53,011 nucleotides of DNA from Syntrophobacterales bacterium (GTDB lineage: Bacteria; Desulfobacterota; Syntrophia; Syntrophales; CAMTWB01). The notes below the pieces were generated by a model, which saw only the letters and a program-made list of their open reading frames with translations, did no database searches and was not told the origin of the DNA. Shown here one piece after another: positions 39,749-45,991 of the stretch (positions are counted from its first letter, which is position 1; each line of letters opens with the position of its first letter). Location: NCBI GenBank assembly GCA_037441775.1, contig JBBIRO010000014.1, positions 1 through 53,011 of the forward strand, written 5' to 3'. A program made the translations under genes and the position numbers.

Positions 39749-40111
39749 TCATTCACCCTTGCGTTTTTCTATCCTCTCCAGTTTTGTTTTGCAGATGATA
39801 CACTGGGTGGTGACGGGACGTGCCATGAGTCTTTTTTCAGAAATAGGCCCGCCGCACTCTTCACAAATGGCAAATGTTCCATCGTCTATACGCTTAATGG
39901 CGTCCTGTATTTTGGTAATAAGCTTGCGTTCCCGATCTCGGATGCGAAGCTCAAAGTTACGGTCTGATTCAAGGGTGGCGCGGTCTGTCGGGTCGGGGAA
40001 ATTTTCCTTGGCGTTCGACATTTCCGTCACGGTGCGATCCGCTTCATCCAAGAGTTTGTTCAATTCCGCTGTCAGCAAGTCTCTAAAATATCGTATTTTA
40101 TCCGGTTTCAT
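39749..40111 (-). CDS. dksA: RNA polymerase-binding factor DksA
   Basis: PDPTDRA coiled-coil tip and CEEC...CIIC Zn finger. Confidence 0.93.
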   Translation of the reverse strand: MKPDKIRYFRDLLTAELNKLLDEADRTVTEMSNAKENFPDPTDRATLESDRNFELRIRDRERKLITKIQDAIKRIDDGTFAICEECGGPISEKRLMARPVTTQCIICKTKLERIEKRKGE

Positions 40112-40308
40112 GGTTGTATGACCTCTGATAAATTGATTCCCATCTTGCCCATCATTACTATAGATATTTTATATCATGGGAAAAATATTGTAAAGAAAAA
40201 ATCCTGAGCTTTATAAGAGGTTGATAATTATTTGCCCATATTGTAAATCCGAAACGGATGGGATATTAGCCTCCAAACGTATTAATTATAGTTCAAGAAG
40301 GCTGGTAT

Positions 40309-41712
40309 ATGGAATACGCGAACATATATAGCGGTTTGGCCTTGATTGCCGACCCCATATACCGGTACGCTTCCTTCACGGTTCCCCGGGGGGAAGGCCC
40401 ATCGGAGGCAACAGAGAAGGATCTTCTGGACTCCCCATGGCTACAAAGGCTCCGTCGCATCTACCAGCTGCAGAGCGCGCGGTGGGTGTATCCAGCGGCC
40501 GAGCACAGCCGTTTTCAGCACTCACTGGGGACGATGCACATGGCCGGAGAATTTGGCCGGCACCTCTATCCGTCTCTCAAACAAGTCTGCCCTGACCTCC
40601 CATCGCCAAATTATGTCGAAGAGCTGCTCCGGGTTGCCGGGCTGCTCCATGATGTGGGCCATGGACCATATGGCCATTTTTTCGATGATAACTATCTCGA
40701 CCACTTCCAGATCACCCACGAAGATTTGGGAATGGCGATAATTACGGAAAAGCTGGCGGACGTTATCCGGGCCATCAGGAGAAGTCCCAGCGGCAAGTTC
40801 GCCGCTGGGGAGGAATTTGATCCGGCGCAGGTATCATTTTTAATCAGAAAACCCGCCGCAAGCGACAAGCGGCGGCCGAAATGGCTGAAATTCCTCCGCC
40901 AGTTGTTTTCCGGCATTTTCACCGTGGACAATCTGGATTATGTCCAAAGAGACGCCTTCATGACTGGTTTTTCCCTGGATATTGTGGATATCGCCCGGCT
41001 CCGTTTCTACAGCTTCTTCACCAGGGATGGATTGGCCCTTCACCAGACAGGTATTTCCGCCCTAAGCCGGTTTCTCAACGCCAGAATAAATCTCTATACT
41101 AATGTTTATTTTCACCGCACCACCAGGGCGCTAGACATTCATCTACAGGAAATATTCCGCGAGACAATGAATCTTGTTCTCTTAGGTTCGCCACTCGATG
41201 ATTTAGATGGTTATCTGGCGTTTGACGAATGGTTTCTCTACCATAAGGTGCAGGAATGGTCGCAGGAAGATGATCCGGTAAAAAGAGATTTAGGAAGGGA
41301 ATGGTGCAATCTTCATCGGAGAGAAGTAAAGTGGAAAATGGCTTTTTCCACAGAGATATCGATCGACCAGATTCACCGGGGGGCGAGATTTCTCAAGGCG
41401 TCCGATTACGAAAATCACATTAGAGAATATTTGCCGGCGAAATTTAGAAGCATCAATTTTGTAGTGGACATGGCCACCCAGGACCCTCGCCCTTTAAATC
41501 CGATGGCGGAAGTTGACAAAAGGGTGAGCATCTACAATCCCAACACCGGCGTTACTTCACTGGAGCCGCTGATTGAAATCTACCGCTTCATTCCGGCCCG
41601 GGTCGTTCATTTTCGCGTATTTTCGCAAAATCACCAGCAAGATGGAGTGCTTTCTCAGGCAGCCGAGCGCGCTCTCGGCGCCTTGGATAGACCTGAGAAG
41701 ACAAATATATGA
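40309..41712 (+). CDS. HD-domain phosphohydrolase, SAMHD1/dNTP triphosphohydrolase-like
   Basis: DPI, QRLRRIYQL, HSRFQHSLG, LLHDVGHGPYGH, HE, DNLDYVQRD and VYFH; metal ligands intact. Confidence 0.88.
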   Translation: MEYANIYSGLALIADPIYRYASFTVPRGEGPSEATEKDLLDSPWLQRLRRIYQLQSARWVYPAAEHSRFQHSLGTMHMAGEFGRHLYPSLKQVCPDLPSPNYVEELLRVAGLLHDVGHGPYGHFFDDNYLDHFQITHEDLGMAIITEKLADVIRAIRRSPSGKFAAGEEFDPAQVSFLIRKPAASDKRRPKWLKFLRQLFSGIFTVDNLDYVQRDAFMTGFSLDIVDIARLRFYSFFTRDGLALHQTGISALSRFLNARINLYTNVYFHRTTRALDIHLQEIFRETMNLVLLGSPLDDLDGYLAFDEWFLYHKVQEWSQEDDPVKRDLGREWCNLHRREVKWKMAFSTEISIDQIHRGARFLKASDYENHIREYLPAKFRSINFVVDMATQDPRPLNPMAEVDKRVSIYNPNTGVTSLEPLIEIYRFIPARVVHFRVFSQNHQQDGVLSQAAERALGALDRPEKTNI

Positions 41713-43757
41713 ACGAGATCAATGAAACAACCGACCTGACTCTGTTTGTGCGCACCTCCGGCGCTGAGTCCGCCCCCTGGAATCGGCAGCGCATTGTCGA
41801 TGCCCTGTTAAGGGAAACCGGCATTGATTATCTGACTGCCGAGGCGGTAAGCAAAGAAGTTGAGAAACAGATCATGGCCTCCGGCTTGACCAGGCTAACC
41901 ACCACGCTGGTACGCGAGCTGGTGGATGCCCGGCTGGTAGAACGAGGTATGGAACAGGCCAGGGGGATGCACTCCACCTTAGGTTTTCCAATGTTTGACG
42001 TACGGCAACTGCTGCTGCACGAAAACAAGGAAAACGCCAATGTTCCCCATGGCCCGGAGGGTACTAATCTGATTTTGGCGGAAGGAATAAAGCGTGAGTA
42101 CGCTCTGCATGATGTTTTCAGCCAGGATATTTGTGACGCCCATATCAGGGGTGATTTGCACCTTCACGGGCTGGGATACATTGATCGCCCTTACAGCGCC
42201 GCCGGTAACAGCCTGGAGTATCTAAAGCGATTTGGCCTTGACCTGCCCCATGCCCTTACGGTTGCGCACCCGGCCAGGCACGCGGAGGTTCTTTTGGCCC
42301 ATATGGTAAGGTTCAGTGCAGTTCTCCAGGGGCATTTCGGCGGACTCATCTCTTGGAATATGGTGAACATTTCCTTTGCTCCTTATATATCCGGCCTTTC
42401 CGATCGGGAGGTCGAACAGTTCGCCCAGATGCTGATTTACGAGTTTTCCCAATTGACTTCCACCCGCGGCGGTCAGGCCCTGTTCACAGACATTCATCTC
42501 TACTGGCACCTGCCCCAGGGAGTAGCCTGTATGCCGGCGATTGGGCCTGGCGGGGTATACACCGGCAAGACCTACGGCGACTATCAGGCAGAGGCCAGGA
42601 GTCTGGCCCGGGCGATTTTCATGGTGTTTCGTGCCGGCGACGCCCGGGGGCGCCCCTTTATATTTCCCCAGCCCGTAGTGCATATCACGGATGAGTTTTT
42701 TGCTGCCGACGGAGCCGATGAATTCCTGCGCTTGATTTGCCAGGTTGCCTTGGAAAAAGGCAATACTTGTTTTGTCTTTGACCGCTCCCGCGAAAACCTG
42801 CCTGGCGCTGATTTAGCCCGTCAAGAAGGAAACAGTAAATATTGGGATGTCAGGCAGGCGACGATCCATAACGTGACGATCAATCTGCCGCGCCTTGGTT
42901 ACCGGGCGCAGGGAGACGAGAAGCGTTTTTTTTCCTTGCTTGACGAACAGATGCAACTTGCTGTCCGCGCCCACATCAATAAAAGGACATTTATTGAGCG
43001 ACTGCTGGCCTTTGGTGATATGGGCCCGCTTGCGGTCTTGGCCATGAAACAAGATGGCCGCCCCTATCTCCAACTGGAAAATGCCCGTTACTTTATCGGT
43101 CTGGTCGGACTTAATGAGCTTGTTGAGATTATGAGCGGCCGGGGGTTGGATGATGACAGCCGGGGGATGACTCTTGGCCTGAAGGTAGTAGCCTACATGT
43201 CCCAGAAACTGGATATGCTGAGCCGTAACATGGAGCTGCCCCTCTCCCTGGTTCAAACCGAAGCGGAGACAACTGCCTACCGCTTTGCCCGGCTCGATCT
43301 TAAATATTTTTCCCCTGCGGCTGGTAAGTTCGTTCGCGGGGATATCGCCTCGGGCGGGATGTACTATTCGAATTCCACCCATTTGCCGGTTTCGGCCGCG
43401 GTATCATTTTTTACACGAGTGGAGATGGAAGGGAGGTTCCACCCTTATTTAGATGGCAAGCCAACTTGTATTCTCTATACCGGCGATCAACCGCCGCCGG
43501 TTGAAGTCGCTGCCGATTTCATCAAGAGGGCTTTGCTGGAAACCGGAGTGGTAAGCCTGGTATTCTCGCCCGAATTCACCATCTGTCCCGCCTGCGGCAA
43601 GACAGGAAGAGGATTGCAGGCCTTGTGCACTGCCTGTGACTCAAGATCGGTTGACGGAATCGCCCGGATTACCCACTACCTGAGCCGTATCTCCGGATGG
43701 AACAAAGGGAAACTGTCCGAGTTGAAAGACCGCAACCGGCAGATGTCGTTTTTTTAG
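41709..43757 (+). CDS. Class III ribonucleotide reductase (NrdD) homologue, predicted catalytically inactive
   Basis: ATP cone, KENAN, GDLHLH, RGGQ, TINLPR, GLNE, AETTAYRFARLD, YYSNSTH, CPAC..CTAC and WNKGK; the glycyl motif reads RITHY and the catalytic Cys residues are not evident. Confidence 0.85.
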   Translation: MNEINETTDLTLFVRTSGAESAPWNRQRIVDALLRETGIDYLTAEAVSKEVEKQIMASGLTRLTTTLVRELVDARLVERGMEQARGMHSTLGFPMFDVRQLLLHENKENANVPHGPEGTNLILAEGIKREYALHDVFSQDICDAHIRGDLHLHGLGYIDRPYSAAGNSLEYLKRFGLDLPHALTVAHPARHAEVLLAHMVRFSAVLQGHFGGLISWNMVNISFAPYISGLSDREVEQFAQMLIYEFSQLTSTRGGQALFTDIHLYWHLPQGVACMPAIGPGGVYTGKTYGDYQAEARSLARAIFMVFRAGDARGRPFIFPQPVVHITDEFFAADGADEFLRLICQVALEKGNTCFVFDRSRENLPGADLARQEGNSKYWDVRQATIHNVTINLPRLGYRAQGDEKRFFSLLDEQMQLAVRAHINKRTFIERLLAFGDMGPLAVLAMKQDGRPYLQLENARYFIGLVGLNELVEIMSGRGLDDDSRGMTLGLKVVAYMSQKLDMLSRNMELPLSLVQTEAETTAYRFARLDLKYFSPAAGKFVRGDIASGGMYYSNSTHLPVSAAVSFFTRVEMEGRFHPYLDGKPTCILYTGDQPPPVEVAADFIKRALLETGVVSLVFSPEFTICPACGKTGRGLQALCTACDSRSVDGIARITHYLSRISGWNKGKLSELKDRNRQMSFF

Positions 43758-43817: not shown

Positions 43818-45587
43818 TCACGGCGGGGTTTCGCCCGGAAATATCTCTTCTTTGGCAGCGGCAATTGCCCTGCGGAGATAATCTTCGTCCACCATGCCGA
43901 ATGGTCCGGGAGTCTCCAGTATCCGTTTAGGGATGCGGAGATTCTCAAATGAGAAACCTTCACGGATCTTGAATTCAAACTTGGCCCGATGTATTTCTTT
44001 TCCGATGCGGTCCAGTTCCGAAGGCGGGATATCAAAGCCGGCCACAGCCAGAGCTTTTGAGACCAGTTCCGGGGTGTAGATGCCGCGGGCGAAGAAGCAG
44101 ACCACCAGAGAAGATAGGATCTGACGCCACCTTTCCTCTTTGATCAGCTCTGTTATCATCTCCCCCGCCTCTGGTATCCGTTTGGGGAGAACCTTCTGAT
44201 CATAGCTGTAACCGCCGTTATCAAGGTGGCTATGGCGCGCGCCAATGAGAACCCCGACATGGGCGGCGGGTCCGGTATGATAACCGGGCATTTCGTTTCC
44301 GGCAAAAGAGAGGGCAAAATCCGCACCGCCGTATTTTAGAATGGTGTATTCAAGACCCCTTGACAGAGCTTTATATAGATCATTTTTCTGCTTGACGATT
44401 TTTTCCAGCGCAAGCATGTAGGTTTCATAATCACCCCAAACAAGCTTCAGGCCCAAATCCGCTTCGGATATAAGGCCTCTCTCCAGGGCTTCAGTAGCCC
44501 AGGCGAGGACAACCCCGGCGCTCATGGCATCAAAGGCCCACTTCTCCACCCACTCGATTAATTTTAGGAGCCCTTTGGGATCGGCAATGCCAAGCATCGA
44601 TCCAAGCGCATATATCGGTTCGTAATCGTAAGAAATCATGGATGTCTTATAGAAATATGCCTCATCCACATATGGTTCCCTCAAAGCGGCAATGTGAATG
44701 CAGCCTACCGGGCAATGGGAACAGGCCAGCCGTCGCCCCAGGAAGTGCTCAGCCAACTGCTCGCCCGAGATGGCGGCGGCATTTTCCATGCTGGTGGCAG
44801 TCAGATTTTTTGTTGGCAGTCCCCCCATTGCATTTAAGGGAGCTATGTTTTCCGCCGTTCCCAGGTCGTGGTATTTTTTCATCACCGTGGAAGTGACGGC
44901 GGCCTGGTAAATGCTGTCGTATGTTTCCCGATAGGCCTTTTTATTGCTTATTGGCAATGAATGGTTTCCGGATATAACCACTGCCTTGAGTTTTTTGCTA
45001 CCAAACACCGCTCCCAGGCCCAGGCGTCCAAAATGGCGGTAGGTCTCGGTGGTCACACAGGCGTAGGATACCAGGTTTTCCCCCGCACCGCCGATCCTCA
45101 TAATGGTCCTAATGCCCGCGCCCTTTTCGTTTTCCCGGATAATTCTTCCCACAGTAAAACTGCTGACCATGCCCCAAAGGGATGAGGCATCACGAAATGA
45201 AACCCCGTTGCTGTGAATAGCCAGGTAAATCGGCGTTGCGCTTTCTCCCTTGATCACGATTGCCCCGAAACCGGCGCAGCGGATCGCAATGGCGCTCCGG
45301 CCGCCGCAGTGGCTTTCTCCAAGATTTCCGGTCAAGGGGGACTTAAACATGGCGACGGTCTTTGAGGCTAAAGGGAATAAGGCGGTTAGCGGCCCAACCG
45401 CCATGATTATAGGGTTTTCGGGACTTAAGGGGTCGGCGTTTGGCGGGCATTCCTCCGCGATAAGCTGTGCCGCCACTCCGGCGCCGCCAAGGTACCGGGA
45501 GAATAGATCCTCACGACGCACCGTCCGGAAGCGTTTTTTTGTGAGATCAACGTAAAGCACATTGGCCAGGGAGTCGGCGGCGATCAT
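43818..45587 (-). CDS. Aldehyde:ferredoxin oxidoreductase family (tungstopterin) protein
   Basis: YLGGAG, KSPLTG, GRLGLGAVFGSKKLKA, CSHCPVGC, DYEPI, DAMSAG; ATG at 45587 overlaps the upstream stop. Confidence 0.9.
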   Translation of the reverse strand: MIAADSLANVLYVDLTKKRFRTVRREDLFSRYLGGAGVAAQLIAEECPPNADPLSPENPIIMAVGPLTALFPLASKTVAMFKSPLTGNLGESHCGGRSAIAIRCAGFGAIVIKGESATPIYLAIHSNGVSFRDASSLWGMVSSFTVGRIIRENEKGAGIRTIMRIGGAGENLVSYACVTTETYRHFGRLGLGAVFGSKKLKAVVISGNHSLPISNKKAYRETYDSIYQAAVTSTVMKKYHDLGTAENIAPLNAMGGLPTKNLTATSMENAAAISGEQLAEHFLGRRLACSHCPVGCIHIAALREPYVDEAYFYKTSMISYDYEPIYALGSMLGIADPKGLLKLIEWVEKWAFDAMSAGVVLAWATEALERGLISEADLGLKLVWGDYETYMLALEKIVKQKNDLYKALSRGLEYTILKYGGADFALSFAGNEMPGYHTGPAAHVGVLIGARHSHLDNGGYSYDQKVLPKRIPEAGEMITELIKEERWRQILSSLVVCFFARGIYTPELVSKALAVAGFDIPPSELDRIGKEIHRAKFEFKIREGFSFENLRIPKRILETPGPFGMVDEDYLRRAIAAAKEEIFPGETPP

Positions 45588-45991
45588 TGTTTTACCTCCT
45601 TTTCTTCCATCCCGATAACGCCGTGGGGGCAAAAATTGCTGCAAACGCCGCAGTGGATGCAAATCATCGGCTTGTTAATTTCATCAGCCCAGAAGATGGC
45701 CTTAATAAGGCAGGCATTCCGGCAGTTACCGCAACCCAGGCACTTGTCCAAATCGAGTATTACGCCGCCCCCTTTGCGCAACCGCAAAGCGTCCGTGGGG
45801 CAAACCTTGAGGCAAGGCGGGTCATCGCAGGCCCTGCATACCACTACGGTGAAACCCTTTTCCATTCCGCCGACGGAATGAACTCCAATGCAGGTTTTCG
45901 CAAGACCGCCCTCTCCTTGGCGACGATTGCAGGCAAACATGCAGCTCTGACAGCCAACACAGCGATCCGTGTCTTTTATTGAAATCCTCAT
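45584..45991 (-). CDS. 4Fe-4S dicluster protein, AOR small subunit
   Basis: Four Cys clusters: CVGCQSCMFAC, CRACDDPPCLKVCP, CLGCGNCRNAC, CIHCGVCSNFCP. Confidence 0.9.
   Translation of the reverse strand: MRISIKDTDRCVGCQSCMFACNRRQGEGGLAKTCIGVHSVGGMEKGFTVVVCRACDDPPCLKVCPTDALRLRKGGGVILDLDKCLGCGNCRNACLIKAIFWADEINKPMICIHCGVCSNFCPHGVIGMEEKEVKQ

Follow-up and report, generated by a model that had tools for sequence, protein, structure and literature searches.

Ribonucleotide reductases (RNRs) are among the best-studied allosteric enzymes, and to our knowledge every member of the family has been assumed to be a radical enzyme. The link between synthesis and degradation of deoxynucleoside triphosphates (dNTPs) is well known in animals from RNR versus SAMHD1, but is poorly understood in prokaryotes. 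Here we describe a two-gene locus on a 53,011-nucleotide contig of a Syntrophobacterales bacterium (JBBIRO010000014.1, positions 1 to 53,011; 'the window' hereafter means this whole stretch of DNA). An HD-domain phosphohydrolase gene (40309..41712, forward strand, 467 amino acids (aa)) is followed on the same strand by a gene for a homologue of the class III reductase NrdD (41709..43757, 682 aa). The NrdD-like protein has lost its radical residues and is nonetheless conserved, mostly beside the HD gene, across the class Syntrophia.

The beta-herpesvirus R1 homologues and yeast Rnr4 retain the RNR fold although their catalytic or radical residues are gone, and have a non-catalytic role. These belong to other RNR classes and organisms and have other partners than the protein described here, and we know of no dead RNR with a class III origin or with a link to a dNTPase. 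A precedent for nucleotide sensing is NrdR, in which, according to PMC9110341, an RNR-derived nucleotide-binding module is used purely as an ATP/dATP sensor; NrdR is, however, a DNA-binding protein of 150 aa with a Zn ribbon and a cone, whereas the NrdD-like protein keeps the whole 680-aa barrel with a degenerate cone. Aminoacyl radical enzymes, as described in PMC11528403, are likewise homologues of glycyl radical enzymes with a residue other than glycine at the radical site, but they keep the catalytic Cys, an activase and an Ala, Ser or Thr at that site, and the dead NrdD family has none of the three. Neither a glycine-less NrdD family nor an HD–NrdD operon was described in the literature found (supplements and subscription journals lay outside the search), in line with a preliminary description of the locus that knew of no such pair.

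The NrdD-like protein retains the full class III fold. It matched PF13597 at 389.9 bits (cut-off 26.2) and fell just below the cut-off of the NrdD equivalog TIGR02487 (323.4 bits, cut-off 326.35). Its AlphaFold2 (AF2) model, with a predicted local distance difference test (pLDDT) of 86.6 that drops below 50 at residues 365–375 in the finger-loop region, aligned over the full length with the NrdDs of P. copri, S. thermophilus, T. maritima and T4 (template-modelling (TM) score 0.6–0.75). We mapped its sites through alignments to NrdD structures, with residue roles taken from two structural papers. There, an NxN flap covers the substrate in live, glycine-bearing NrdD (PMC11226230), and T. maritima NrdD has a conserved beta-1 Cys125, an HxHD motif (H-Y-H-D 111–115) and an effector pocket with Gln161 (PMC4493059). 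Like the class III enzymes of P. copri, T4 and T. maritima, the protein has a Zn ribbon (C626, C629, C640 and C643; 43584..43637, this and all following features of the gene on the forward strand), the NxN flap (ENAN, 42030..42041, aligned to the P. copri flap), an HxH pair, the substrate-bridging Glu520, a Tyr after the radical site (Tyr657) and a cone-like N-terminus (41748..41951). The N-terminal domain is degenerate, scoring 18.8 bits (E 0.004, cut-off 25.8) against the ATP-cone profile PF03477; the closest live relative matches hardly better, at 21 bits.

Unlike these enzymes, the protein lacks every residue of the radical pathway. The glycyl-radical loop reads RITHY (43665..43679), with His656 replacing the Gly of the R-x-x-G-Y motif of live NrdDs (RVVGY in the genome's own NrdD). 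Ser163 (42195..42197) occupies the position of the beta-1 active-site Cys, giving RPYS where live enzymes carry RPYC. A 9-residue deletion relative to the genome's own NrdD removes the SMCCRL finger-loop Cys, leaving a shortened, degenerate remnant (42780..42860) from which the thiyl-radical motif CCRL is absent. The triphosphate-binding motif HxHD, mapped to T. maritima 111–115, survives as HLHG (42159..42170), its Asp changed to Gly; loop 2 is relaxed, no nrdG lies beside the gene and, by a crude test, NrdR boxes are missing. Judged by these residues, the protein is unable to make or use a glycyl or thiyl radical; having lost the Gly, the beta-1 Cys, the finger-loop Cys, the HxHD Asp and the nrdG neighbour, it should carry out no ribonucleotide reduction. 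The reading of an uninterrupted 682-aa NrdD homologue without radical residues, put forward in the preliminary description, is borne out by RITHY, Ser163 and the finger-loop deletion. A canonical class III system, which that description had suggested looking for, is present on another contig of the genome (C19): a 694-aa NrdD with an ATP-cone, SMCCRL and RVVGY, only 27% identical to the NrdD-like protein, with nrdG directly after it. The same genome also encodes a class I/II-type RNR large subunit and NrdR.

The losses are a family trait. We compared the 120 best database relatives of the NrdD-like protein (57–85% identity; hereafter the dead family) with 21 live relatives. The former come from Syntrophales, Smithellaceae and deltaproteobacterial metagenome-assembled genomes (MAGs) and are named 'anaerobic ribonucleoside-triphosphate reductase'. 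At the glycyl-radical site the dead family has Q in 98, R in 9, H in 6, K in 4, L in 2, C in 1 and G in 0 of 120, against Gly in 21/21 live relatives. The beta-1 Cys is replaced throughout (S 111, G 6, N 2, T 1, Cys 0 of 120; Cys in 21/21 live), CCR occurs in 0/120, and the HxHD Asp is found in 1/120 against 21/21. The finger loop, of fixed length 34 in live relatives, ranges from 13 to 42 residues in the dead family and is its single strongly relaxed segment (conservation 0.36 versus 0.85). Other parts of the protein hardly vary: 120/120 members have H151, H153, E520, Y657 and all four Zn Cys (the Zn Cys are also invariant in alignment A3), and of the NxN flap N111 is kept in 119/120 and N109 in 104/120. 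Two substitutions are fixed, K201R (Arg in 120/120, Lys in 21/21 live), at the position of the T. maritima effector-pocket residue Gln161, and N263H (His in 120/120, Asn in 21/21 live). The cone-like residues 21–60 are better conserved than in live relatives (0.82 versus 0.65) and the C-terminal domain nearly as well (0.75–0.77 versus 0.82), while the loop 2 residues K270 and H271 are relaxed.

Since the same losses recur in 120/120 members, those of the window's gene are due neither to chance nor to sequencing error. The ratio of non-synonymous to synonymous substitution rates (dN/dS) between the window and a congener was 0.139 for the NrdD-like gene, with PriA (0.214) and the aldehyde:ferredoxin oxidoreductase (AOR, 0.064) as comparators. 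A pseudogene was ruled out, with no internal stop among the matches listed and dN/dS of 0.10–0.14. The family is radical-dead yet under purifying selection. Because no member can perform the reaction, the name 'anaerobic ribonucleoside-triphosphate reductase' is a systematic mis-annotation, which distorts metabolic reconstructions of Syntrophia that count RNR classes.

The HD protein, in turn, has its catalytic residues intact. It matched the HD domain PF01966 at 42.8 bits (cut-off 22) and HD_assoc_2 at 21.1 bits, under the cut-off of 23.1. Its best relatives of solved structure are Aquifex 2hek, Bacteroides 2q14, Enterococcus EF1143 (2o6i) and SAMHD1 (E 1e-27 to 1e-16). The motifs QHSLG, LLHDVGHGPYGH and DNLDYVQRD are present and align to EF1143, 2hek and 2q14, and H71, H114, D115, D207, D210 and D215 are invariant in 38/38 orthologues, in agreement with the intact SAMHD1-type catalytic motifs reported at the outset. 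The AF2 model (pLDDT 83.5) matched the catalytic core of SAMHD1 over the full length (Foldseek TM 0.64–0.75, probability 1.00), and dN/dS between window and congener was 0.054. The NCBIfam dGTPase models were not matched (best 28.4 bits, cut-off 439). We predict that the protein is an autonomous, catalytically competent dNTP triphosphohydrolase of the SAMHD1/EF1143 type. With the SAMHD1/EF1143/2HEK family it shares a sequence match, the full-length fold and intact metal-binding and catalytic His/Asp residues; it differs from SAMHD1 in having only ~20% identity and no SAM domain, and from the whole family in being co-translated with an RNR-fold protein, an arrangement described for none of them in the literature found.

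The two genes are joined by a 4-base ATGA overlap (41709..41712, forward; ...AAT ATA TGA / ATG AAC...), in which the HD stop meets the NrdD-like start, suggesting translational coupling. To follow the pair across the class, we searched 301 Syntrophia genomes, accepting HD matches at E 1e-30 and dead NrdD matches at E 1e-120; the set includes many incomplete MAGs, and related genomes in it do not count as independent cases. HD was found in 259 and dead NrdD in 261 genomes (183/204 and 185/204 of the high-quality ones); both occurred in 242, HD only in 17, NrdD-like only in 19 and neither in 23. Both genes are single-copy and near-core, with HD 64–73% identical across the class. The gene order was scored in the 101 genomes represented among the best ~150 matches of both searches (149 and 148, the second copy of G160 being left out). 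HD lay directly upstream of dead NrdD on the same strand in 91 of them, with a gap of -1 to 231 nt (median 20); in the other 10 it was farther upstream on the same strand (6) or on a separate contig (4). The same adjacency held in 14/14 contig loci of relatives, so that the proposal in the preliminary description to score HD adjacency among glycine-less NrdD homologues found the pair in both samples. A tblastn search with the genome's own NrdG gave no match in the tested loci that carry a dead NrdD copy.

Beyond the pair, the genes in 9/12 loci run HD, dead NrdD, SIS-domain gene and grpE. This block is broken in the window's genus, where HD and dead NrdD remained paired. In the loci with the block (L012–L017, L020–L022, L058–L062 and L069) the third gene encodes a 194-aa SIS_2 protein, 67–80% identical across the order, and grpE is followed by dnaK, with small heat-shock genes nearby in some loci.

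The pair arose within Syntrophia. The nearest glycine-bearing relatives of the NrdD-like protein share ~52% identity with it (50–54%), and in a sample of the phylum 164/401 genomes had a match at E 1e-90 or better. All 20 non-Syntrophia Desulfobacterota loci that we fetched carry a live NrdD (RITGYF, SECCRLS) with nrdG behind it, and in none does HD occur within 5 kb. As the live relatives stand beside nrdG and never beside HD, it was in Syntrophia that the phylum-type NrdD gave up its radical residues, parted from its activase gene and gained the linkage to HD. Ribonucleotide reduction in Syntrophia is done by a distant NrdD type, and the phylum-type NrdD is a dead copy. A quick tree placed all dead lineages except P0132 in one group, sister to the live clade (Shimodaira–Hasegawa-like approximate likelihood ratio 91, with long-branch attraction possible), a result compatible with one origin of all dead NrdD forms except P0132. 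P0136 and its kin, considered as an independent replicate, turned out to branch deep within that clade.

We tentatively read the locus, with somewhat less than even confidence, as a housekeeping operon for dNTP homeostasis in which a non-catalytic, nucleotide-binding pseudoenzyme derived from NrdD is a facultative partner of a dNTPase. The operon would serve dNTP-pool control and be specific to the class Syntrophia, its second gene descending from the NrdD type that serves as the class III reductase in other Desulfobacterota. The retained barrel, with its Zn ribbon, C-terminal plug domain, NxN flap, phosphate-binding His pair, bridging Glu, invariant residue in the former effector pocket and cone-like N-terminus, would bind (d)NTPs non-catalytically. 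It might signal the state of the pool by a nucleotide-dependent order–disorder transition of the flap, cone and C-terminal domain, as in live NrdDs. In most Syntrophia it would be co-translated with the dNTPase, both tuning dNTP turnover, and each gene would also work alone in some lineages, which would make the partnership facultative. The data show the gene anatomy, the lost radical residues, the conservation, synteny and selection of the pair and its origin, whereas dNTPase activity of the HD protein, nucleotide binding by the NrdD-like protein and any influence of the latter on the dNTPase are inferred.

If this housekeeping reading holds, a radical-dead NrdD selected across a class and tied to a dNTP-degrading enzyme would be a case of the RNR nucleotide-sensing scaffold being reused after the loss of catalysis, and the operon may show how bacteria coordinate dNTP synthesis and degradation. 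As a naturally 'radical-free' NrdD, the dead protein may also allow the dynamics of flap, cone and C-terminal domain to be studied structurally under air.

Several observations weigh against the housekeeping reading. The pair is not always complete: 19/301 genomes keep dead NrdD without HD, among them complete single-contig genomes of one family in which HD had no match even at E 1e-3, and 17/301, including part of another genus, keep HD without dead NrdD. When alone, the genes had dN/dS of 0.10 (NrdD-like) and 0.08–0.09 (HD), and since each persists under selection without the other, the pair is facultative rather than obligate. Of the 401 genomes of the phylum sample, 52 have HD orthologues, 37 of them other genomes in which HD stands alone (45–63% identity), and 0/10 fetched HD loci outside Syntrophia had an NrdD-like neighbour. 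Adjacency is weaker evidence for coupling where it falls within an order-wide housekeeping block. None of 24 longer HD homologues carried an NrdD domain, although the absence of a fusion is weak evidence. The HD protein resembles enzymes with allosteric nucleotide sites of their own, and no external sensor would then be needed. Nucleotide binding is itself not assured: the HxHD Asp is lost in 119/120 dead-family members, loop 2 is relaxed at K270 and H271 and the cone match falls short of the Pfam cut-off, so that binding is not simply transferable from live NrdD. The preliminary description had made the RNR scaffold a sensor or partner controlling the dNTPase. This idea is partly supported: it gains from the conserved pair, the purifying selection and the retention of part of the nucleotide-binding apparatus, and is weakened by a pair that is not obligate, by HD alone elsewhere, by the lack of fusions and by the degenerate cone.

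Much of the same evidence bears on the possibility that the two proteins do not interact at all and are neighbours by inherited synteny, the dead NrdD acting elsewhere, for example as a non-activatable decoy for NrdG or on NrdR or RNR expression. This is the main rival, in our view somewhat less likely than the housekeeping reading. It would account for the persistence of each gene alone under purifying selection, for the preservation of the HD–NrdD–SIS–grpE order as a block and for the lone HD genes elsewhere in the phylum. It would further agree with the conservation, without its Gly, of the C-terminal domain that NrdG normally recognises (0.75–0.77 versus 0.82 in live relatives), and with a second, glycine-domain-less NrdD lineage that lies downstream of nrdR in 5/19 loci and never beside HD. 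Inherited synteny is, however, harder to square with the very tight spacing (a stop/start overlap in the window and a median gap of 20 nt in the 91/101 genomes), with a pair that stayed together after the block broke in the window's genus, with an association that arose in the very lineage from which the radical residues and the nrdG neighbour disappeared, and with two protein families that act on the same metabolites. Two genomes with HD (G007 and G009, 99–100% complete), searched with the NrdD-like protein as query, yielded no match to any type of NrdD at E 1e-5 and presumably rely on another RNR class; a role tied to NrdG or NrdD cannot therefore be general. A decoy for the real NrdD, also raised in the preliminary description, is unlikely to act by poisoning it as a heterodimer at only 27% identity.

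Other explanations give the NrdD-like protein or the pair a different activity. That it is a new, non-radical nucleotide enzyme, with His263, Arg201 and the polar residue that took the place of Gly acting in the old active site and possibly feeding or following the HD hydrolase, seems quite unlikely to us: the fixation of N263H and K201R (120/120 versus 21/21 live), a Gly site always filled by a larger residue (polar or basic, Q, R, H or K, in 117/120), the kept substrate shell (NxN, HxH, Glu and Tyr) and the strong purifying selection are as expected, but the Gly-site residue varies among Q, R, H, K, L and C, unlike a catalytic residue, and the Asp of the triphosphate motif is lost. An aminoacyl radical on the residue replacing Gly is barely credible. 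Ala, Ser and Thr can carry such a radical in enzymes of the pyruvate formate-lyase (PFL) type, but PMC11528403 covers only these three residues within the PFL superfamily, with NrdD as an outgroup, and the dead family has Q, R, H, K, L or C at the site, has lost both catalytic Cys and has no adjacent activase, which live relatives keep in 20/20 loci. We also consider very unlikely an anti-phage dNTP-depletion system in which the RNR-like protein senses infection or nucleotides, as the preliminary description had offered. Bacteria are known to defend themselves by depleting dNTPs with a dGTPase or dCTP deaminase (10.1101/2021.04.26.441389), the HD protein matched the PADLOC dGTPase model weakly (22.5 bits, E 1.6e-5), and some longer HD homologues are fused to HTH–WYL domains. 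That match is, however, confined to the HD motif (residues 66–123, 58 residues), the NCBIfam anti-phage dGTPase models gave 15–16 bits against cut-offs of 383–400, and the NrdD-like protein had no PADLOC match. In the class, HD (259/301 genomes, 64–73% identity) and dead NrdD (261/301) are single-copy genes and nearly belong to the core genome; this near-universal vertical inheritance argues against defence, as do the housekeeping neighbours (the SIS–grpE block) and an even GC content without composition anomaly over the region.

A more far-reaching form of the housekeeping reading, which we think unlikely, is that NrdD pseudoenzymes make up an ancient clade, since diversified, of receptors dedicated to the (d)NTP pool, which includes both the glycine-less forms and two-cone forms next to nrdR. 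The Syntrophia receptor would read ATP, dATP and dNTPs through relic allosteric and substrate sites and signal to the dNTPase by nucleotide-driven release of its glycine-less C-terminal domain; if so, a dead reductase and a live hydrolase would form a bacterial supply-and-demand controller. In a bolder variant, the remodelled active site (His263, Gln/His656) would carry out new, non-radical nucleotide chemistry.

The two-cone forms belong to the second dead NrdD lineage (P0157, P0183 and ~30 others; alignment A4), whose members have ~750–770 aa with a true ATP-cone and a second cone-like domain, and lack the radical Cys and the C-terminal Zn or glycine domain. In the 19 metagenome loci of this lineage (L104–L114, L117, L119, L134, L138, L141, L148, L153 and L164), it lay directly downstream of rsmD–nrdR in 5, and 0/19 had an HD neighbour, a further point against tying NrdD pseudoenzymes to the dNTPase. 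A published table has a passing entry for Chloracidobacterium, 'NrdD-like paralog (no NrdG)', without sequence features, partner or function; this paralog probably belongs to the same glycine-domain-less lineage.

A joint structure prediction of HD residues 36–467 with NrdD-like residues 115–682, a construct that excludes the N-terminal hairpin of HD and, in NrdD, both cone and flap, scored 0.00, which weighs neither way. For regulation, we used a 16-base NrdR-box consensus, which fits this lineage poorly (genome-wide best 13/16, at 3 sites, none at RNR genes). The genome's own nrdD on contig C19 has two 11/16 matches 31 bp apart, at about -117 and -86 relative to its start, as expected if NrdR controls the nrdDG operon, and one 11/16 match lies upstream of the class I/II-type RNR gene. 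Upstream of HD, the window has one 11/16 site and no tandem pair, and a tandem pair was found in 0/35 related loci; with a consensus of poor fit, this is a weak negative.

Upstream of the pair in the window lies a divergent dksA (39749..40111, reverse strand; DksA_N 98 bits), and downstream, convergent, are the AOR gene (43818..45662, reverse) and a gene for a 4Fe–4S protein (45584..45991, reverse); dksA and AOR flank the pair otherwise only in the closest relative. Open reading frame (ORF) calls, junction sequence and profile matches agree with the two-gene operon, 4-bp overlap and dksA and AOR flanks of the preliminary description, and also with its statement that the window has no nrdG, as 0 of the 11 NrdG2-model matches in the genome fall on the window's contig (C14). 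The dksA–HD intergenic region (40112..40308) is the presumed promoter region of the operon. Between 40125 and 40270 it contains several CCCAT / ATGGG copies, direct and inverted (for example CCCATCTTGCCCATCATT ... ATCATGGG ... CCCATATTG ... ATGGGATATT), which may be an operator.

Some candidates for fused or substitute partners dissolved on inspection. Open frames of 1185–1203 aa that resembled HD–NrdD fusions have HD in a different frame, and are therefore high-GC artefacts. A 584-aa ORF upstream of dead NrdD in an HD-less genome, considered as a replacement partner, had no Pfam match and lies antisense to a gene for an ABC-F ATPase. Genuine fusions of the HD domain are of other kinds: the longer relatives P0272 and P0275–P0289 carry HTH_11 and WYL or CYTH (triphosphate tunnel) domains, which point to other regulatory or defence-type contexts for the HD family outside Syntrophia, and the annotation of P0274 names a SIS as well as an HD-associated domain.

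In one genome (G073), an in-frame 108-aa ORF directly downstream of HD (L065:2629–2955, reverse strand) consists of the first ~23 residues of dead NrdD and a match to residues 635–676, with half of the Zn ribbon and an RLTKY loop. The ORF may have been left over from a deletion or may encode the C-terminal domain on its own, and in the latter case would be reminiscent of GrcA, the spare-part protein of PFL. Among live NrdDs, the closest relatives of the dead family (P0123–P0135 and many others) have 1000–1700 aa, often with 1–3 insertions, a length reached by no dead-family member among the matches listed; P0123 has an intein splicing domain with a LAGLIDADG endonuclease.

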